Below are positions 1 to 9,750 of a stretch of 11,003 nucleotides of DNA, one piece after another (position 1 is the stretch's first letter; every line of letters starts with the position of its first letter). A program made the position numbers and the translations under genes. The DNA is from Arcobacter sp. (GTDB lineage Bacteria; Campylobacterota; Campylobacteria; Campylobacterales; Arcobacteraceae). Where the stretch lies: assembly GCA_965662175.1 (NCBI GenBank), contig CBFIGT010000074.1:1-11003 (forward strand), written 5' to 3'. The notes under the pieces were generated by a model. The model made no database searches. It was given only the letters and a program-made list of their open reading frames with translations, and was not told the origin of the DNA.

Positions 1-339
1 TTTGATAAAAAAAGAGATGGGGAAAGATTTGAACCTGATTTTATTTTGATGTTAAAACATAAAGACAACTTTATTTTTCAGATTTTTTGTGAACCAAAAG
101 GTGATTGGTCAAAAGATGATAAAGAAGGATTTGAAAATAGTAGTGAAAAATGGAAAAATGAGTTATTAGAAGATATTACACAGTGTACAGAACTAAATAA
201 GTTAATATTAGAAGATATAAATGAAAGTAATTTAAATATCTATGAAAATACTCCTTATAAAATATTAGGTTTACCTTTTTATAATTATTCTATGGAGAGT
301 GAGTTTAAGGATAGGTTTAGAAGTGTTTTAACTGTTTAG
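1..339 (+). CDS. C-terminal fragment of a probable type III restriction-modification Res subunit (PD-(D/E)xK nuclease end); gene starts upstream of the window
   Basis: Frame is open from base 1 (FDKKRDGERFEPDFILMLK...QIFCEPKG...KWKNELLE...YKILGLPFYN) to TAG at 337-339. The FEPDF...EPKG...WK pattern and GLPFYN tail match my recollection of type III Res C-termini. The ORF-track start at 46 is internal. Confidence 0.75.
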   Translation, partial: FDKKRDGERFEPDFILMLKHKDNFIFQIFCEPKGDWSKDDKEGFENSSEKWKNELLEDITQCTELNKLILEDINESNLNIYENTPYKILGLPFYNYSMESEFKDRFRSVLTV

Positions 340-355
340 ATTTTTTTGTTTTTAA

Positions 356-388
356 TATGCGTCCCAAAGCTGGAGCTTTGGGACGAGA
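356..388 (+). repeat. REP-like palindrome copy A (AAAGC/GCTTT variant), between convergent genes
   Basis: TATGCGTCCCAAAGCTGGAGCTTTGGGACGAGA. Perfect 12-bp inverted repeat CGTCCCAAAGCT (360-371) / AGCTTTGGGACG (374-385). GC-rich in AT-rich context; related to 8486-8518. Confidence 0.85.
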
Positions 389-397
389 GTGATGGTT

Positions 398-1312
398 TTA
401 GACAAAATAATTCAAAACTAAAAGTATAAATATGATTGAGACTAATGTCTGAACTGTGATAATTGAGGACATTAATCCAATATCACCACCTAATTGTCTG
501 GCTAGTATAAAAGAGCTTGGTGCTGTTGGTAGTACTGCAAATAAAACCAAAATAGATAACATCATTCCATCTATTCCAAATAGTTTTCCAAAAATAAATA
601 TCAAAATAGGTAAAACCATATGTTTTGCTAGGCTTGAGATTAGAAGCTCTTTTTTTGATGATTTTATCTCTTTGATTACAAGTCCAAAGCCTACTGATAA
701 AAGACCCATTGGAAGTGCTGCTTTACTTAATATCTCTAAAGTATTATTTATAACTATTGGAAACTCTATTCCAAAAAAGTTGATAGTTCCACCTATAACA
801 CAAGCTACTATTAGAGGGTTTGTGATTATTGATTTTAGTAAATATATGAAGTTCAGTTTATCATTTGAGATATATAATGCAAAAATAGTGATACATAAAA
901 TATTTATAAATGGTATGGCAAAGGTTAAAATAATAGCTGCTAGAACTAATCCCTCATTTCCAAAAATTGAACCTGCAAGTGCTAAAAAAACATAGGTATT
1001 AAATCTTATTCCTCCTTGAACTACTGAGGTAAAAGAAGCTGGTGTTGCTGGTGATATTTTATTTATAAAGATTAAGATAATCATGGTAAAAAATATTGCT
1101 AAAAGTGCTGATATTACGAATTCAAAGCTATTCTCTCCATCAAGTGAAGCTGATGAGAGTTTATATATCAAAAGCGAGGGCATAAGAATATAGTATGTTA
1201 GTTTATCAGCTTGTGGCCAAAATTCATGGGATGGAAATTTGATTTTTTTGAAAAAGTATCCTATTAGAATAAGTGAAAAAACAGGGATTAAAGCTGAAAA
1301 AATATGTATCAT
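398..1312 (-). CDS. AEC (auxin efflux carrier) family membrane transporter
   Basis: 304 aa, highly hydrophobic, about 10 TM. Family motifs: LIPVFSLILIGY, LTYYILMPSLL, RFNTYVFLAL, NPLIVAC, ALPMGLLSVG, LPTAPSSFILARQLGGD. Confidence 0.9.
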   Translation of the reverse strand: MIHIFSALIPVFSLILIGYFFKKIKFPSHEFWPQADKLTYYILMPSLLIYKLSSASLDGENSFEFVISALLAIFFTMIILIFINKISPATPASFTSVVQGGIRFNTYVFLALAGSIFGNEGLVLAAIILTFAIPFINILCITIFALYISNDKLNFIYLLKSIITNPLIVACVIGGTINFFGIEFPIVINNTLEILSKAALPMGLLSVGFGLVIKEIKSSKKELLISSLAKHMVLPILIFIFGKLFGIDGMMLSILVLFAVLPTAPSSFILARQLGGDIGLMSSIITVQTLVSIIFILLVLNYFV

Positions 1313-2796: not shown

Positions 2797-5406
2797 ATGT
2801 TTATGGGAAAAAAGAAAAAGTACAGTTTAATAGATATACAAAATCTTTTTTCTAGAATACCAATAATTTTTATTATATTTCTAGCCACACTTCTTGTCTT
2901 GATTACATATTTTATTTTAGACTCCAAAAAAAATAGAGAAATAGATTTGATTAAACAAAAATATCATCTTCAATATGAGTTTGATAAAAAAGTTGAGTTA
3001 AATAAGTTTGTAAATAGTGTTTCTCAAAAAGTAAAAGAGACTTTTATTGATGAAGAAAAGATTATAAAAGAGGCTACATATAAGGCTATTGGATATTTAG
3101 AATCATACTCTTTCCATGACTTAAAAAAAATAAAAAACTATCTAAAACTTATAGAAGAGAGATATAGTATTGAGTTTGTGATTTTTAAAGAGAAAGATTT
3201 AGATATTTTATATGGAAATGAATCCATAAGTTATATACAAAATTTGATTTTTAATTCAACTATTACGAAAAACAGTAAAAACTTAACTCTTCAATATATA
3301 TATTCCCAAGGTAAAAATAATCTACAATATTGGAATGATGATATTAAAAAAACAGTAAGACTTAGTTTTTTTGATAATGTTATTTTAGAAAATGAGAGAT
3401 TTTATGTTGGGGCATTTTCTACTATTAGTTCTATTGAAGAGATAACAAGAAACTCTATTTTTGAGCTAATTAAAGCTAATAAATCGCATTTTTGGTTTTT
3501 TGATTTAGCAAATCAAAAGGTATTTAATTTTGATAATAAGAATAAATATGATGATAGTAATTACTTTTTAAAAGATAAAATTAAAAATAAATCTTATGAG
3601 ATATTGGAATACTATTTTAATGATTTAGAGTACAAAAAAGAGTATAAAAACTATACTTATTTATTCAGCAAATATAGTTTTTTGATTGTAAATCAATATG
3701 ATAATAATGTAGTGGAAAATAAAATAAAAGATTTAATAATTGATATAAAAAAAGAGTATATCAATCAATTTTTTCAAATATTTATTTATATTTTAGTTAT
3801 CTCTACTGTTTTGATTCTGTTTACATTTATCTTTACAAATTTTATAAGTAGTATTTTTACAAAATATAATGATGAACTGCAAACTAAAACAACATCTTTA
3901 GAGCACTGGAAAAAGAGATTTGAGTTAGCAATTATTGCTTCAAATGATGGATTATGGGATATTGATTTTAAGACACAAAAAATTTATTTTTCTGATAAAT
4001 GGCTTGATATGTTTGGATATAAAGAGAATGAAATCTCCACATTTCCTGATTGGGTTTCTTTGATTCATACAGAAGATAAGGCAAATGTAGAAAATCTTTT
4101 TAGTCAGATTTTTTCAAAAACAAGTGATACTTTTATATGTGAATATAGATTAAAGACTAAAAATGATGGCTTTAAATGGGTACTTGCAAGGGGTAAATCA
4201 TTTCCTGATGAAGAGGGTAATCTAGATAGAATGCTTATGATGTCAATGGATATTGATAAAAGTAAAAGGATGAAAAAAGAGCTTCTTGATATTGAGTTGT
4301 TAGTTGAAGATGGGAAAATCGTGATTTTCAAACTTCACAATGATGAAAACTTATCTGTAAAATATATCTCAAATAGTATCAAAAACTATGGTTTTATAAA
4401 AAAAGATTTTGAATCACATGAAATAAATTTGATGGATTTAATCCACAAAGATGATAAAGATTTAGTTCAAGCAGCTATAAATGCAGCACTAAAAAAAGAT
4501 TTGGGAAACTTTACTTTTGTATGTAGGATTTTAAATGCAGCAGATGAGATAAGATGGATATCTTGTAGAGCAATTTTGATAAAAAATTACTCAGGAGAGG
4601 TTATATTTTTTTATGGATATATAAATGATATAACCAAAATAAAAGTAAGTGAAGAGGAGCTAAAACTCAAAGTTGAAGAGGAATTGAGTAAAAATAGACA
4701 AAAAGATAGAATCCTAATCCAGCAAAGTAAACTAGCAGCCATGGGTGAAATGCTTGGAAACATAGCCCACCAATGGAGACAACCTTTAAATAATGTATCC
4801 CTAATCTTACAATTTTTAAGAGATAACTACAACAATAAAGATGTAAGTAGTGAAAAACTTGATAAATTTATAAATAATGCAAATAAACATATTCAATACC
4901 TAAGTGATACAATTGATGATTTTAGAAACTTTTATAAACCCTCAAAAGTACAAAACAAATTTTGTATAAAAGAGTCTATTGATTCACTTTTACATATGTT
5001 TAGAAATCAGTATGAAAATATAAATATAGAGTTAAAGTGTGAAAAAATAGAGATAACAAACTATGAAAATGAACTAAAACAAGCTCTCTTGAATATTTTA
5101 AATAATGCAAGAGATGCAATAAACTCAAAAAAAGAGAGTCAAAAGTTTGATGCACAGATTATTATAAGATGTAAAAAAGAGAATGATAAACTAAAAATAT
5201 CTATTTTTAACAACGGTGGAAATATCTCAAGTGAGATTTTAGATAGGATTTTTGAGCCATACTTTACAACCAAATTTGAAAGCCAAGGCACAGGAATAGG
5301 GCTTTATATGACAAAGTCAATTATAGAAAATAATATGAAAGGTAAAATAGAAGTATCAAATATAGATGATGGTGTTAATTTTAACATCACACTTGATATA
5401 AAATAG
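2797..5406 (+). CDS. Membrane sensor histidine kinase: TM - periplasmic domain - TM - two PAS domains - HisKA - HATPase
   Basis: Two hydrophobic segments. PAS motifs DGLWDID...IHTEDK...EYRLKTKNDGFKWVLARG and IHKDDK...IRWIS...GYINDIT. H-box EMLGNIAHQWRQPLN, N-box LLNILNNARDA, F-box IFEPYFTTK, G2 GTGIGLY. Confidence 0.95.
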   Translation: MFMGKKKKYSLIDIQNLFSRIPIIFIIFLATLLVLITYFILDSKKNREIDLIKQKYHLQYEFDKKVELNKFVNSVSQKVKETFIDEEKIIKEATYKAIGYLESYSFHDLKKIKNYLKLIEERYSIEFVIFKEKDLDILYGNESISYIQNLIFNSTITKNSKNLTLQYIYSQGKNNLQYWNDDIKKTVRLSFFDNVILENERFYVGAFSTISSIEEITRNSIFELIKANKSHFWFFDLANQKVFNFDNKNKYDDSNYFLKDKIKNKSYEILEYYFNDLEYKKEYKNYTYLFSKYSFLIVNQYDNNVVENKIKDLIIDIKKEYINQFFQIFIYILVISTVLILFTFIFTNFISSIFTKYNDELQTKTTSLEHWKKRFELAIIASNDGLWDIDFKTQKIYFSDKWLDMFGYKENEISTFPDWVSLIHTEDKANVENLFSQIFSKTSDTFICEYRLKTKNDGFKWVLARGKSFPDEEGNLDRMLMMSMDIDKSKRMKKELLDIELLVEDGKIVIFKLHNDENLSVKYISNSIKNYGFIKKDFESHEINLMDLIHKDDKDLVQAAINAALKKDLGNFTFVCRILNAADEIRWISCRAILIKNYSGEVIFFYGYINDITKIKVSEEELKLKVEEELSKNRQKDRILIQQSKLAAMGEMLGNIAHQWRQPLNNVSLILQFLRDNYNNKDVSSEKLDKFINNANKHIQYLSDTIDDFRNFYKPSKVQNKFCIKESIDSLLHMFRNQYENINIELKCEKIEITNYENELKQALLNILNNARDAINSKKESQKFDAQIIIRCKKENDKLKISIFNNGGNISSEILDRIFEPYFTTKFESQGTGIGLYMTKSIIENNMKGKIEVSNIDDGVNFNITLDIK

Positions 5407-5413
5407 GGGATTT

Positions 5414-6121
5414 ATGATGAGTGATTTAATTACAAGAGTTTTATTAGTAGAAGATGAAGAGGATGCAAGAGAAATACTTGAGTTTTATCTTGATACAATA
5501 TTTGATGAGGTACAAATAGCAAGGGATGGACAAGAGGGTATTGATTTTTATAAAAAAGCCTATGAAGAAAACAAAGCCTTTGATTTAGTTTTGACAGATA
5601 TAAAAATGCCAAATGTAGATGGCCTAAGCATGATAGAAAAAATCACACAGATAAATGAAAATCAAAAATTCATAATAGTATCAGCATACAAAGATGAAGA
5701 GTATCTTTTTAAATCAATAAATCTAAATGTAGTAAGTTATTTTGTAAAACCATTGGAAGTAAAAAATATAATGGAACTACTAAAAAAAGTAAAAGCAAAA
5801 GTTTTAGAAGATAAATCAAGTAGTGAAAAGATTGAAGAGATAATAAAATTAAATGAAAACTATACATACAACACAAAAACAAACTTGCTTTATAATGATG
5901 AGGTTTTAGTTGATTTATCAAAAAAAGAGATTTTACTAATACAAGCTTTACTTACAAATATAAAAGAGATAAAAACAAAAGAGTATCTAAAAAAATTCAT
6001 TTGGGAAAACAAAGAGACCTCCGATGCAACACTACGAACAGTAATAAAAAGAGTAAAAGATAAAATAGCAAATAACGACTTCATAGTTTCAAAAAAAGGA
6101 CTTGGATATATAGTTGAATAA
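5414..6121 (+). CDS. OmpR/PhoB-family response regulator (receiver + winged helix)
   Basis: LLVEDE, DLVLTDIKMPNVDG (phosphoacceptor Asp), SA, KP. C-terminal LRTVIKRVKDK...SKKGLGY. Starts 7 bp after the kinase stop. Confidence 0.95.
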   Translation: MMSDLITRVLLVEDEEDAREILEFYLDTIFDEVQIARDGQEGIDFYKKAYEENKAFDLVLTDIKMPNVDGLSMIEKITQINENQKFIIVSAYKDEEYLFKSINLNVVSYFVKPLEVKNIMELLKKVKAKVLEDKSSSEKIEEIIKLNENYTYNTKTNLLYNDEVLVDLSKKEILLIQALLTNIKEIKTKEYLKKFIWENKETSDATLRTVIKRVKDKIANNDFIVSKKGLGYIVE

Positions 6122-6155
6122 AATATAAAACAAAAAATCATCATATCCCCACACC

Positions 6156-6188
6156 TTTCATTCTCATCGTCCCCGATGGGAATGCATA
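6156..6188 (-). repeat. REP-like palindrome copy B (ATCG/CGAT variant)
   Basis: Plus strand TTTCATTCTCATCGTCCCCGATGGGAATGCATA. Stem CATTCTCATCG / CGATGGGAATG (10/11, one G-T), loop TCCC. Reverse complement begins TATGCATTCCC. Confidence 0.85.
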
Positions 6189-6227
6189 CATAAACAAATA
6201 CAATTTCAAATCACATAAAATAATTAG

Positions 6228-6256
6228 TTGACAATATGTACCAAAAAAGGTACAAT
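6228..6256 (+). promoter_or_regulatory. Sigma70 promoter with overlapping palindromic operator for TA module 1
   Basis: TTGACA (6228-6233), 17 bp, TACAAT (6251-6256). Inverted repeat TGTACC-N6-GGTACA (6237-6254). Confidence 0.85.
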
Positions 6257-6261
6257 AAAAA

Positions 6262-6603
6262 ATGAAAAAAATACCTGCACTTTTTTATAAAAATTCAAAT
6301 GATAAAAAGCCAGTTAGAGATTGGTTATTAGAATTGTCAGAAAATGATAGAAAAATAATAGGACAAGATATTGCAACAGTAGAGTATGCTTATCCTGTTG
6401 GAATGCCAACTTGTAGATCTCTTGGAAATAAACTTGAAGAAGTGAGGAGTGATATTTCTGATAAAAGAATAGCTAGAGTGATTTTTTCTATAAAGTGTGG
6501 CTATATAATTTTGTTACATGGATTTATAAAAAAAACGCAAAAAACACCAAAAAATGAAATCGATATTGCACTAAAAAGATTGAAGGAAATAGAATGCGAA
6601 TAA
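6262..6603 (+). CDS. Type II toxin, RelE/ParE superfamily (Gp49/DUF891, HigB-like), toxin-first
   Basis: 113 aa: FYKNSNDKKPVRDWL, PVGMPTCRSLGNKLEEVRS, RIARVIF, ILLHGFIKKTQKTPKNEIDIALKRLK. Confidence 0.9.
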   Translation: MKKIPALFYKNSNDKKPVRDWLLELSENDRKIIGQDIATVEYAYPVGMPTCRSLGNKLEEVRSDISDKRIARVIFSIKCGYIILLHGFIKKTQKTPKNEIDIALKRLKEIECE

Positions 6604-6878
6604 AACAAAATATGAAAAGTGATTTTGATGAATTCTTACAAGATGAGGGAGTTTTTGTTGAAACCGAATCACTTGCAATTAAAAGAGTAATTGCTTATCA
6701 AATAGAACAAGAGATGAAAAAGCAAAATATAAATAAATTAAAGATGGCAAAACTAATGCATACAAGTAGAAGTTCAGTTGATAGATTATTAGACCCTATG
6801 AATAAATCTCTTACAATATCAACACTTGAATCTGCAATTCAAGCTTTAGGTAAAAAATTAAATATTTCAATTTCTTAA
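6594..6878 (+). CDS. XRE-family HTH antitoxin (HigA-like), partner of the upstream toxin
   Basis: 94 aa, overlaps the toxin stop, SD AAGGA upstream. SDFDEFLQDEG...AIKRVIAYQI...MAKLMHTSRSSVDRLLDP...TISTLESAIQALGKKL. Confidence 0.85.
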   Translation: MRIKQNMKSDFDEFLQDEGVFVETESLAIKRVIAYQIEQEMKKQNINKLKMAKLMHTSRSSVDRLLDPMNKSLTISTLESAIQALGKKLNISIS

Positions 6879-6891
6879 AGTATATAAAATC

Positions 6892-6983
6892 TCTCGTTCC
6901 CATCGTCCCGAGTCTATAAAATAACCCAAACCAATATCTTGTGATTTTATTATTTTCCCAGACTCTGGATCTTTGGAACGAGA
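6892..6983. repeat. Decayed doublet of REP-like palindromes (copy C 6892-6910, half; copy D 6951-6983, degenerate)
   Basis: C: TCTCGTTCCCATCGTCCCG, the left half of the B-type element. D: TATTTTCCCAGACTCTGGATCTTTGGAACGAGA. 6892-6914 and 6961-6983 are inverted to each other (18/23 by hand alignment). Confidence 0.7.
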
Positions 6984-7126
6984 TAAAAAAATTCATTTGG
7001 GAAAATAAAGAGACCTCCGATGCAACACTACGAACAGTAATAAAAAGAGTAAAAGATAAAATAGCAAATAACGACTTCATAGTTTCGAAAAAAGGGTTGG
7101 GGTATTTGATTGAGAGTGGTAATTAA
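6984..7126 (+). pseudogene. Orphan duplicate of the response regulator 3' end (direct repeat of 5988-6118) with an alternative C-terminus
   Basis: 6984-7086 matches 5988-6090 at 102/103 nt. It then diverges but encodes SKKGLGYLIESGN* versus SKKGLGYIVE*. No credible start of its own. Confidence 0.9.
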
Positions 7127-7196
7127 AGGTTATCATACCCTCCTGATATATTTAGCATTTTGTTAAACTATTAGTTATCTTAAAAAATCCAACATC

Positions 7197-7225
7197 TTGA
7201 CAAAACGTACGTTATTTAGTACAAT
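7197..7225 (+). promoter_or_regulatory. Sigma70 promoter with YefM-type operator for TA module 2
   Basis: TTGACA (7197-7202), 17 bp, TACAAT (7220-7225). Palindrome AACGTACGTT (7204-7213) and a second GTAC at 7219-7222, 12 bp apart. Confidence 0.85.
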
Positions 7226-7252
7226 ATCTAAAATTTACAAAAAAGGTTAACT

Positions 7253-7498
7253 ATGACAAGAGTCATGTCAGTAAGTCAAGTTAGAAAAGATATTTACAAT
7301 GTAATGGATGAGACAGCACAAACTCATGAGCCGGTACTTATTACTGGGAAAAGAAACAATGTAGTTATGCTTTCTCAAGAAGACTGGAATGCGATAGAAG
7401 AGACACTATATTTAAACTCTATACCTAACATGGCATCTTCAATTCAAGAGTCAATGATTGCAGATGACAGTGAGTTTAGTGAAGATATTGAATGGTAG
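7253..7498 (+). CDS. yefM: Phd/YefM-family antitoxin
   Basis: 81 aa: SQVRKDIYNVMDETAQTHEPVLITGKRNNVVMLSQEDWNAIEETLYLNSIP; acidic tail. Overlaps the toxin start. Confidence 0.9.
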   Translation: MTRVMSVSQVRKDIYNVMDETAQTHEPVLITGKRNNVVMLSQEDWNAIEETLYLNSIPNMASSIQESMIADDSEFSEDIEW

Positions 7499-7761
7499 AG
7501 TATAAAATACTTTACTCAAAATTAGCACTGAAAGATGCTAAAAAGTTAACAAGTGCAAATTTAGATAAAAAAGCTAAAGAACTTATTGAAATCATAAAAA
7601 AAGACCCATTCCAAAATCCACCTCCCTATGAAAAATTAGTTGGTAATTTAAATGGCTCATACTCAAGAAGAATAAATATTCAACATAGACTAGTTTATGA
7701 AGTTAGAGAAGCTGATAAAGTAATAAGAATTTCTAGAATGTGGTCTCATTATGGAGAATAA
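7492..7761 (+). CDS. yoeB: Txe/YoeB-family ribosome-dependent mRNase toxin
   Basis: 89 aa, basic: DPFQNPPPYEKLVGNLNGSYSRRINIQHRLVYEV...MWSHY, with the YoeB catalytic E/R/H/Y pattern. Confidence 0.92.
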   Translation: MVEYKILYSKLALKDAKKLTSANLDKKAKELIEIIKKDPFQNPPPYEKLVGNLNGSYSRRINIQHRLVYEVREADKVIRISRMWSHYGE

Positions 7762-7774
7762 GATAACTGGAGTG

Positions 7775-7815
7775 GGTTTAATTTTAAAGAGGTTTAATTT
7801 TAAAAAGTTTAATTT
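7775..7815. repeat. Short tandem repeat, ~16-bp unit x2.5
   Basis: GGTTTAATTTTAAAGA / GGTTTAATTTTAAAAA / GTTTAATTT. Confidence 0.6.
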
Positions 7816-7897
7816 GTTTTAAAATTTTGTTGTTACTCATAAAAGTGATTATAGCATAAAATATAATATTTAAAGAAATTGTGTATTTGATTTTTCC

Positions 7898-7906
7898 CTC
7901 GTTCCC
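7898..7906 (-). repeat. Terminal remnant of the REP-like palindrome (copy E)
   Basis: CTCGTTCCC, identical to 6893-6901 and the reverse complement of the GGGAACGAG end. Only 9 bp, but GC-rich and located at a gene breakpoint. Confidence 0.55.
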
Positions 7907-8136
7907 TTAGTTTTGAAGATGTTATTTTAAGTATTGAAGATGGGAATTTATTAGATGATATAGAACATCCAAATAAAGATAAATATCCAAATCAAAATAT
8001 TTTTATAATATTAGTTAAAATTAAAGATTATGTATATTTAGTACCATATGTTGAAGATAATACTTCAATATTTTTAAAAACGATTATACCCTTAAGACAG
8101 ATGAATAAAAAATATAATAAAGGAGTTTCAAAATGA
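7906..8136 (+). pseudogene. 5'-truncated BrnT-like (RelE-fold) type II toxin, absent from the ORF track
   Basis: Translates LSFEDVILSIEDGNLLDDIEHPNKDKYPNQNIFIILVKIKDYVYLVPYVEDNTSIFLKTIIPLRQMNKKYNKGVSK*. In-frame TGA at 7888-7890 and no ATG/GTG/TTG before 8101. The usual N-terminal W..EKN..L...RG segment is missing. Stop overlaps the next ATG (ATGA 8133-8136). Confidence 0.8.
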
Positions 8137-8399
8137 AAAATTTAGATAAATTTGAACAAGATATTTTAAATAGTGTTGAAAGTGGTGAATGGAAAAGTAA
8201 AAATGATAATGAAAATAGATTAAAAGAGCTGCAATCATATATAAAAAATCAAAAGAAAAAAGCTATTTCAATAAGGGTAAATGAAAATGATATTTATGAA
8301 TTAAAGAAAAAAGCTTTAGAGAATTCTATTCCATATCAAAATATTATTCAAATGTTAATACATCAATTTGCAAATAATAAAATTAAATTAGATATGTAA
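8133..8399 (+). CDS. CopG/RHH-type (BrnA-like) antitoxin
   Basis: 88 aa: LDKFEQDILNSVESGEW...KKAISIRVNENDIYELKKKALENSIPYQNIIQMLIHQF. SD AAGGAG at 8120-8125; coupled to the toxin remnant. Confidence 0.8.
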   Translation: MKNLDKFEQDILNSVESGEWKSKNDNENRLKELQSYIKNQKKKAISIRVNENDIYELKKKALENSIPYQNIIQMLIHQFANNKIKLDM

Positions 8400-8418
8400 G
8401 ATTTCTTATTCATATTCT

Positions 8419-8518
8419 TCTCATCCCATAGTCCCAGATGGGGAATGCATACCTAAACTAACACAACTCTAAACCTCTTTTTAAATATGCATTTCAAAGC
8501 ACCAGCTTTGGAATGAGA
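8419..8518. repeat. Head-to-head doublet of REP-like palindromes (copy F 8419-8451, copy G 8486-8518; 34-bp spacer)
   Basis: F: TCTCATCCCATAGTCCCAGATGGGGAATGCATA (B-type). G: TATGCATTTCAAAGCACCAGCTTTGGAATGAGA (A-type; stem CATTTCAAAGC / GCTTTGGAATG, 10/11). Confidence 0.85.
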
Positions 8519-8607
8519 GGAATAAAGTTTCAAAATAAAAGGTTTTGTTTTATTGGTTTGAATATATAAATCCCTTAAAATAGGGTTTTATGTACAAATT
8601 TATAAAT

Positions 8608-8651
8608 TTGAAACAATTTTGAAACAATTTTGGATTGTTTTATGTTATACT
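8608..8651 (+). promoter_or_regulatory. Tandem 11-bp direct repeat over the -35 region plus extended -10 for the TRAP operon
   Basis: TTGAAACAATT twice (8608-8618, 8619-8629). TGnTATACT at 8643-8651. Confidence 0.7.
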
Positions 8652-8679
8652 TCTTCTGTACAAAAAAAAGGAGAATAAC

Positions 8680-9690
8680 ATGTCTAAATTATCAATCTTA
8701 AAAAAACTGTTAGCTACATCTGTAATAGCAACAGCAATGTTTACAAGTGCAAGTGCAGAAACAAAATATGTAATTGCAACAGCAAGTACTGGTGGTACTT
8801 ATTATCCAGTTGGTGTTGGGATTGCTACAATCGCTTCAATCAAATTAGCAAAAGAGCATAAAACTACTTTTTCAGCAATTACAAGTGCGGGAAGTAATGA
8901 AAATGTTGATATGCTTGATAAGGGTGAAGTAAACTTTGCTATTTTACAAGGTTTATTTGGTTCTATGGCTTGGCAAGGAAAAGATAAATATGAGGGAAAT
9001 GCTAAGAAAAATCTTAGATCAATCTCTATGTTATGGCAAAATGTTGAGCAATTTACTATTAAAAGTGAATATGCAAAAACTGGAAATATTAAAGATATAA
9101 AAAATCTTTATGGTGAGAGATTCTCTATTGGTGGAAGAAGCTCAGGTTCTAGAGTTTCATCTGAAACAATTCTTAGCTCACTTGGAATTGATTATAATAA
9201 AATGGATTTACAATACTTAGGTTATAGTCCAAGTTCAACTGCTCTTCAAGATGGAAAAGTAGAGGGTATGACAACTCCATCAGGTCCTCCAACATCAGCT
9301 GTAACTAATGCTTTTGCTTCAATTGGGGCTGATAAAATTAAAGTATTAGATTTTACAAAAGAGGATTTAGCTGCTATTAATGCAAACTATCCTGTATGGA
9401 CTCCATTTACAATCAAAGCAGGAACTTATCCTGGTCAAACAAAAGATATTAATACTATCGCACAACCAAACTTATTAGTTGTAACTGAAGATACACCTGA
9501 AGAGACTGTTTATTTATTAACTAAAACTATTTATGAAAATTTACCGTTTTTAAACTCAGTTCATAAAGCTACAAAAGCTATGTCTTTACAAAAAGCAATT
9601 GATGGTTTACCAATGCCTCTACACCCAGGTGCTGCAAAATTCTATAAAGAGCAAGGTATAAATATTCCTGCATCTTTAATCGCTAACTAA
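8680..9690 (+). CDS. TAXI-family TRAP transporter solute-binding protein
   Basis: ATG 8680 preceded by AGGAG. Signal peptide MSKLSILKKLLATSVIATAMFTSASA; IATASTGGTYYPVG, SAGSNEN, SIGGRSSGS, PLHPGAAKFYKE. The ORF-track TTG start at 8635 is less likely. Confidence 0.93.
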   Translation: MSKLSILKKLLATSVIATAMFTSASAETKYVIATASTGGTYYPVGVGIATIASIKLAKEHKTTFSAITSAGSNENVDMLDKGEVNFAILQGLFGSMAWQGKDKYEGNAKKNLRSISMLWQNVEQFTIKSEYAKTGNIKDIKNLYGERFSIGGRSSGSRVSSETILSSLGIDYNKMDLQYLGYSPSSTALQDGKVEGMTTPSGPPTSAVTNAFASIGADKIKVLDFTKEDLAAINANYPVWTPFTIKAGTYPGQTKDINTIAQPNLLVVTEDTPEETVYLLTKTIYENLPFLNSVHKATKAMSLQKAIDGLPMPLHPGAAKFYKEQGINIPASLIAN

Positions 9691-9726
9691 AAAAATAAAA
9701 AGGGCTTTATCTCCCTTTTTATTTTT
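9691..9726 (+). terminator. Intercistronic hairpin (intrinsic terminator-like / mRNA-stabilising)
   Basis: AAAAATAAAAAGGG (9691-9704), 8-nt loop, CCCTTTTTATTTTT (9713-9726): perfect 14-bp inverted repeat, mostly A/T. Confidence 0.65.
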
Positions 9727-9750
9727 ATATTCTATAAATAAGGATTAAAA

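Follow-up and report, generated by a model that had tools for sequence, protein, structure and literature searches.

We analyzed an 11,003-nt stretch of Arcobacter sp. DNA, the whole of contig C74 (here called the window), in which three toxin-antitoxin (TA) modules lie among copies of a palindromic repeat. The palindromes are copies of one repetitive extragenic palindrome (REP) hairpin family, referred to hereafter as C74 REP, and in related genomes the family accompanies a REP-associated tyrosine transposase (RAYT). We propose, with a probability of about 0.6, that excision and re-integration driven from one end by a RAYT stacked the TA modules at REP doublets. The readable footprint consists of one REP end in one polarity, a predicted cut near position +2 outside that end, a duplicated gene tail, and cargo between. 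The window belongs to an assembly (labelled G000) of 2.6 Mb with 27.8% GC, 249 contigs and 94% completeness.

The C74 REP unit has the form (G/A)TAT-GCATTCC-N13-15-GGAACGAG. Searches with this pattern and with a profile recovered, at the same positions, all seven copies listed by the original prediction, which had been made from the sequence of the window alone. Six of them lie in 6122-8520, where they had been thought to partition 2.4 kb into units; the copies hold and the layout is different, because four are on the minus strand and two on the plus strand, and they mostly form back-to-back, inverted doublets of two subtypes (A and B) and not a row of direct repeats. The doublet at 8419-8518 is intact, that at 6892-6983 is damaged, and at 7898-7906 one arm is left. 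The REP copies and the features used to read them are as follows.

356..388, plus strand: REP subtype B, at the right end of the accessory block ending in the type III restriction gene
5414..6121, plus strand: response regulator, core gene, left anchor of the variable interval
5988..6117, plus strand: X, 3′ end of the regulator, first copy of a 130-bp repeat, end allele 1
6158..6188, minus strand: degenerate REP subtype A (pattern and profile)
6892..6913, minus strand: half REP subtype A, left doublet member, inner arm lost (pattern and profile)
6951..6983, plus strand: degenerate REP subtype B, right doublet member, outer end joined to X′ (profile)
6984..7126, plus strand: X′, dead second 3′ end of the regulator, end allele as in the genus relatives
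7898..7906, minus strand: outer 9-nt arm of a REP, a deletion scar abutting the middle of the TA3 toxin gene
8419..8451, minus strand: REP subtype A, left member of the intact doublet (pattern and profile)
8486..8518, plus strand: REP subtype B, right member of the intact doublet (pattern and profile)
8680..9690, plus strand: TAXI-type substrate-binding protein, core gene, right anchor

The profile was built from 12 REP copies found in the genome, so that 12 of its matches hold by construction. It found 24 units of at least 11.4 bits in G000, confined to 8 of the 249 contigs, and a single match of 10.2 bits in the reversed genome. The arm at 7898 was detected by the pattern, which matches the genome nine times, eight of these being REP copies. 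As predicted, the profile found no copy in the core intergenic regions 1313-1374, 2086-2222, 2715-2796 and 9691-9750. Among 190 distinct C74 REP cores, inner stem pairs were 89-94% paired compared with 41-72% after shuffling (kin are not independent), and the stems covaried through several pair types. The foot is mostly GTAT or ATAT, with GTAG in one genome copy, and does not match the canonical 5′ GT(A/G)G foot. Many copies stand single, outside doublets. The copy said to close the restriction gene does end that accessory block, and homology to all five relatives (5/5) begins at 396-398, just past it.

Family searches confirmed that the three TA pairs are co-oriented, all on the plus strand, and of different families: Gp49/HTH_37, Phd-YefM/YoeB, and an unmatched toxin with a CopG antitoxin.

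6228..6256, plus strand: TA1 sigma70-like promoter, 11 of 12 consensus positions (consensus match only)
6262..6603, plus strand: TA1 toxin, Gp49/DUF891 family, which we take to be RelE/HigB-like
6594..6878, plus strand: TA1 antitoxin, HTH_37
7197..7225, plus strand: TA2 sigma70-like promoter, 11 of 12 consensus positions
7253..7498, plus strand: TA2 antitoxin, Phd/YefM
7492..7761, plus strand: TA2 toxin, Txe/YoeB
7907..8136, plus strand: TA3 toxin, 5′-truncated, about 22 codons and the promoter gone
8133..8399, plus strand: TA3 antitoxin, CopG_antitoxin, 24.7 bits, under the cut-off of 28

The TA3 toxin had no match in Pfam, NCBIfam, PADLOC or PDB. For it the Atlas gave 'Toxin' clusters and a nearby cluster in which 12% of members carry BrnT; it may be BrnT-like, which we treat as a lead only.

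Two scars in the window escaped the original prediction. The first is the 130-bp direct repeat (5988-6117 and 6984-7113), whose second copy begins directly after the REP at 6951-6983. X and X′ differ at one position in the first 103 nt and at eight in the last 27; the end of X′ and the DNA downstream of it match the allele of the genus relatives, and the live regulator gene bears a different end. X and X′ thus carry different end alleles of one locus, indicating that two alleles were fused at the REP end. The second is the truncation of the TA3 toxin gene, whose break coincides with the REP arm at 7906.

Contigs of three public sequencing runs (X1, X2 and X7) were compared with the window. Contig 27 of X7 carries a partial doublet resembling 8424-8500, then 280 other nt, then 7907-8623, so that in this sister strain the TA3 module is flanked by REP hairpins on both sides; in run X2, a different, coding-like sequence precedes 7907, a loose end. 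Contigs 23 and 26 of X7 abut with a 29-nt overlap in the order regulator, end allele 2, TA2, which suggests a strain lacking the 996-bp TA1 unit. A contig of X1 runs through TA1, the doublet and the tail, and returns from 7087 to 6092. This is the form predicted for a circle or a tandem TA1 unit, yet we do not count it as proof of a circle; an assembly-graph shortcut over 80 identical nt gives the same path. The sister strain of X1 also has a 29-nt deletion in the TA1 toxin at window position 6447, a further sign of erosion. A joint of 6066 to 8594 in X7 was rejected, as its 30-nt side may derive from another organism, and no instance of the duplicated regulator tail turned up in a scan of metagenomes.

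The recurrence of the footprint was surveyed in 219 loci with 543 REP calls, by listing non-REP direct repeats of at least 40 bp; six duplicate loci were dropped ahead of this count and of the Polbeta-family and TA-neighbour counts below. Of the 78 repeats found, 11 in loci other than the window start 0-6 nt past a REP outer end in the polarity seen in the window, where 0.3 were expected. By set these were 3/14 (discovery), 3/27 and 5/24 (two later sets) and 0/13 (order-level), against permutation means of 0.04, 0.08, 0.15 and 0.03, respectively. The 11 repeats measure 43-388 bp, the duplicated segment often corresponds to the last part of the gene upstream, and four of the units enclose TA pairs (L151, L181, L194 and L228). 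When the window and contig C5 are added to the 11, the number of nucleotides kept after the GAG end of the REP is two in 8 of the 13 junctions, one in four and three in one. Most joints thus lie 2 nt outside the 3′ GAG of the hairpin, mostly before AA, and most show little or no microhomology. To judge from the sequences, offsets of 1-3 would fit a fixed cut at +2 with a chance overlap of one base.

In C5, an 11-bp duplication edges a 1.5-kb REP-bounded insertion that is absent from all seven genus relatives (7/7). This insertion (L004:5904-7317) holds two lipoprotein-like genes between two doublets that are 96% identical, and with the 11-bp duplication the two flanking stop codons, which overlap, are both preserved. 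Three genomes compared at one orthologous locus hold different cargo and lose their homology 3-8 nt from the outer ends of the REPs; a fourth genome matches on the right side only. The expectation that strain-to-strain indel endpoints coincide with the repeat was therefore borne out: in C5, at the orthologous locus and at the footprint loci, indel and swap ends fall at REP outer ends, and the opposite outcome, which had been named as grounds for abandoning the idea, was not found.

The C74 REP pattern occurs in 52 of 171 genomes of the family, some single matches being due to chance, and in 19 of 151 of the order; among the seven genus relatives only one (G002) has it. In 3 of 10 REP-rich genomes searched, a Y1 gene carries a C74 REP about 35 nt upstream of its start. 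The encoded 177-aa protein scores 100.2 bits against the NCBIfam model REP_Tyr_transpos (NF047646; cut-off 80) and matches this RAYT model, not the IS200-type NF033573. Of its 45 relatives, hosted by Campylobacterota, Methylobacter and Planctomycetes among others, 43 have a REP upstream and 39 have one on both sides; all 45 reversed loci together gave five matches. The repeat can thus be classed as a REP whose partner is a RAYT, in agreement with the prediction. The protein bears the motifs NHLH, WQ, YIHQNP and SS, and from these and its length, read from the sequence and compared with Table 1 of PMC6006769, it was provisionally assigned to subclass 2.6, for which that paper gives NH[LIV]H, WQ, YIH[QN]NP, SS and about 179 aa. 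Subclass 2.6 is defined there as lacking the canonical GT(A/G)G foot, and a REP consensus nearly identical to ours is listed once in its Table S1, under subclass '0'.

The loci of these enzymes are laid out as REP(-), RAYT, REP(+), the same polarity as in the doublets, and in one genus the spacers of doublets begin with the RAYT leader. Because of the shared polarity and these spacers, the doublets look like RAYT derivatives without the gene. RAYT proteins that are 95-100% identical adjoin three different core genes, with a different accessory gene upstream each time, and the presence of near-identical genes at different loci suggests that the RAYT unit is mobile. The upstream slot is filled differently in each genome (L078-L081, L182 and L077). 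A search for a Y1_Tnp or RAYT gene flanked by the repeat had been recommended; it succeeded in relatives and failed in the assembly of the window itself. The two Y1 matches of that assembly, one IS200-type (C32) and one RAYT-like with subclass 2.1 motifs (C164), were rejected as partners, since no REP adjoins them.

The link of REP and RAYT, the arrangement in doublets, the position of the joints at REP outer ends with a near-constant offset, and the differences between strains are observations; from them we infer a stacking model of five steps. HUH enzymes leave a 5′-phosphotyrosine and a 3′-OH that can be rejoined, and the TnpA-REP of E. coli makes distant cuts to either side of its REP (PMC8266576, PMC3333891). 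In the model, a doublet would be a RAYT element that has lost its gene, and the RAYT is predicted to cut two bases outside the REP end. Joining of this end to a site farther away would then excise, duplicate or delete neighbouring DNA along with the hairpin. On single-stranded DNA, the enzyme would have made one cut at the REP end +2 and another, at a loosely defined site, within the core gene upstream, and the two cuts would have closed a single-stranded circle of gene tail, TA1 and doublet. Re-entry of this circle would have been by a RecA crossover within the gene tail that it shared with a chromosome already holding TA2 and TA3; the product would be a complete regulator gene together with a dead second tail from another allele. 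Alternatively, strand transfer on transforming DNA would give the same product, the strand not being decidable from sequence. A later deletion from the REP arm would have taken the promoter and the start of the TA3 toxin. TA pairs might accumulate because they are small, have their own promoter and resist loss, without selection by the enzyme, and hairpin-ended deletions would later erode the accumulated modules. The RAYT would have acted in trans or have been lost since.

Several observations weigh against this model. In its own assembly, 94% complete in 249 contigs, no subclass-2.6-type RAYT was found, and the best RAYT match there (E = 4e-4) is a protein that has subclass 2.1 motifs and no REP beside its gene. 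The result of a stricter, exact-match test was modest, with seven starts at offsets 1-3 compared with 0.78 per offset (P = 0.01, 372 ends). Long duplications occur at only 11 of the 543 REP copies and at none of the 13 order-level repeats; with a wider limit of 15 nt, four repeats begin at inner REP ends, one of them resembling spacer sequence, and in two others the wrong copy was involved. Neither deletion, at 6913 or at 7906, ends at +2; both stop within a hairpin and may be independent of the enzyme. The papers examined report no biochemistry on subclass 2.6 RAYTs. Finally, the interval between the regulator and the TAXI gene is a hotspot that in relatives lacks C74 REP.

This last point could be read to mean that the scars are passive, that is, that the interval is a hotspot of homologous recombination into which REPs were inserted later, their hairpins merely biasing illegitimate recombination or slippage, with no enzyme. 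All seven genus relatives, compared at species level only (GTDB), carry 2.4-14.4 kb of REP-free cargo in the interval, including restriction-modification genes; G030 has a REP-free TA3 module at the same site, and in eight genomes of other genera the interval is empty. Among 21 loci with homologs of the three TA modules, most of them in hosts with few or no REPs, one has a REP within 600 bp and 20 do not. These REP-free intervals and TA loci indicate that the interval is a hotspot even where REP is absent and that TA modules travel without it. The suggested comparison of the interval, made here between species, showed it to be variable and the cargo of the relatives to be free of the repeat. 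The missing cognate RAYT and the mid-hairpin deletions, which fit slippage, also favor passive scars. Nevertheless, all 13 junctions lie 1-3 nt outside one defined REP end, mostly with little or no microhomology, and passive effects of hairpins would not be expected to yield one end, one polarity and one offset. We therefore regard the passive explanation as unlikely, though the most serious competitor of RAYT-driven stacking.

The original prediction also proposed a test for enrichment of the repeat next to TA, restriction and defence genes, and TA genes are enriched beside it. In small open reading frames (ORFs) no more than 450 bp from a REP, 29 of 177 matched TA families, compared with 3 of 122 at a distance of at least 1.5 kb (Fisher P = 8e-5; 122 of 169 distant ORFs were scanned); 11 of the 29 came from one genome. 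In G000, four of the six ParE-family genes adjoin a REP, with REP neighbourhoods covering about 1% of the genome (a slight underestimate), only one of seven Polbeta-family genes is near one, and to judge from the maps a TA or defence gene adjoins 13 of the 17 REP clusters. The counts of TA-family and ParE-family genes would fit a dedicated, integron-like system, with the RAYT as cassette recombinase and REP(+)-gene-REP(-) cassettes swapped at REP ends into arrays serving defence; that cargo swaps stop at REP ends, and that near-identical RAYTs have one of three core genes downstream but an upstream gene that varies by genome, fit it as well. However, a TA neighbour was detected by Pfam at only 17 of 173 surveyed REP loci, many copies lie between core genes, and the concentration of TA matches in a single genome and the low Polbeta-family count also oppose such a system. 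Joints are one-ended and duplicate or break genes, which is not clean cassette insertion, the RAYT itself is found at different loci, and the TA modules retain their own promoters. Together with the REP-free TA homologs and the REP-free interval of the genus relatives, these results go against the proposal of a dedicated capture system for TA and defence genes, which we consider improbable. A broader generalization is doubtful: subclass-2.6 RAYTs and their REPs might form an HUH-based cassette platform parallel to integrons, across Campylobacterota and other phyla, which by a fixed cut outside the hairpin would circularise REP-bounded TA, defence and lipoprotein genes and stack them at doublets and beside the RAYT gene.

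Other REP-bearing regions were noted. In contig C120 of G000 (L003), four REP doublets stand in a polysaccharide-synthesis cluster, three of them bracketing an addiction-module gene and a RelB/YafQ pair. Genome G125 (L141, L142, L144 and L181) has 38 REP matches and several REP-studded TA arrays, and is the best natural model. C74 REP is also carried by 45 stretches of viral contigs (L325-L369), which are possible vehicles. A gene of contig C11 (L008:3379-4092) lies, in relatives, two genes from the transporter at window positions 398-1312, and C11 (L008:3379-6437, contig end) and C74 (window 1-388) likely join through one island; this putative island holds a nucleotidyltransferase, a partner ORF cut by a REP, ORF6N fragments, the type III restriction gene and a REP. 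Another repeat, which is non-coding, unrelated to C74 REP, about 500 nt long and itself contains inverted repeats, occurs in the interval of six genus relatives (L041-L046; for example L046:2412-2958 and 4983-5497) and in L125, L133 and L163, standing twice around cargo in L042 and L046. It had no Rfam match and only a weak 35-nt match in G000, and Rfam gave no match for window 5900-8700 or for the intervals of the relatives.

A further reading is that the repeats are degenerate attC sites served by an integron integrase, and the genome does encode one above the TIGR02249 cut-off on contig C130. The scan found no attC-like fold in 5901-8700 or elsewhere, the RYYYAAC motif occurs in the window at the level of chance (20 compared with 21.6), GTT and AAC stand in the order opposite to that of attC, the joints are at REP end +2, and the repeat flanks RAYT genes. 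The earlier view that these are not attC sites is thus upheld, and we judge the attC explanation very improbable. The integrase gene (G000:C130:5286-6062) lies at a contig end beside a guaA-like gene, with no attC-like site by scan.

The spread of REPs and the benefit of RAYTs to their hosts have been called poorly understood (PMC8266576). Gene capture by REP was already proposed in 2012, when Ton-Hoang et al. noted that distant cleavage could let a REP unit sequester flanking genes or gene fragments (PMC3333891). In the literature searched, which leaves most subscription journals outside its coverage, we found neither the +2 junction nor a stacking of TA modules by the C74 REP family described. 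The footprint defines an exact junction and an exact predicted cut site for this RAYT group, and suggests how small TA clusters in chromosomes might be built and eroded without an integron.

The closest described relative is TnpA-Y1 subclass 2.6 (Quentin et al. 2018, PMC6006769), which is RAYT group 5 (Bertels et al. 2017, PMC5581495). As in subclass 2.6, the partner enzyme is flanked by atypical hairpins that recur in the genome. Subclass 2.6 is mostly from Bacteroidetes (PMC6006769), and group 5 RAYTs are described as slowly evolving and vertically inherited (PMC5581495; bioRxiv 10.1101/2021.07.10.451892), whereas here 95-100% identical copies occupy three loci and relatives occur in several phyla. 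In the parts of PMC6006769 and PMC5581495 that were examined, there is no mention of cargo, of links to TA genes or of duplicated gene tails.

The E. coli REP and bacterial interspersed mosaic elements (BIMEs) processed by TnpA-REP (PMC3333891, PMC8266576), and REPINs, likewise combine doublets of two REP subtypes with HUH chemistry. Single-stranded circles have been proposed for E. coli REP units (PMC3333891; PMC8266576), and according to bioRxiv 10.1101/2024.07.17.603846 none were seen in E. coli. Unlike the E. coli REP, C74 REP has a foot that is mostly GTAT or ATAT and not a fixed GTAG, is present in low copy (the 24 profile matches in G000), joins 2 nt outside its 3′ GAG, mostly before AA and not at C|T, and leaves countable footprints of capture.

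The Y1 HUH gene between terminal hairpins and the gene-less derivatives recall the peel-and-paste elements of IS200/IS605, and the acquisition of neighbouring DNA from one end recalls IS91/ISCR. Differences from IS200/IS605 are that the two ends of the C74 REP element are inverted copies of one REP, and that flanking duplications of 11-388 bp are found here, whereas IS200/IS605 elements do not duplicate their target (PMC3333891); the ORF maps showed no TnpB next to the RAYTs. The stacking of co-oriented, promoter-carrying TA modules between hairpins is loosely like an integron array. In contrast to such arrays, there are no attC cores and no attI or adjacent integrase, the flanks in the window being the regulator and the TAXI gene, and the imprecise one-ended joints duplicate or truncate genes. 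By its repeat and its partner, the latter seen in relatives only, the C74 array is a REP/RAYT system.

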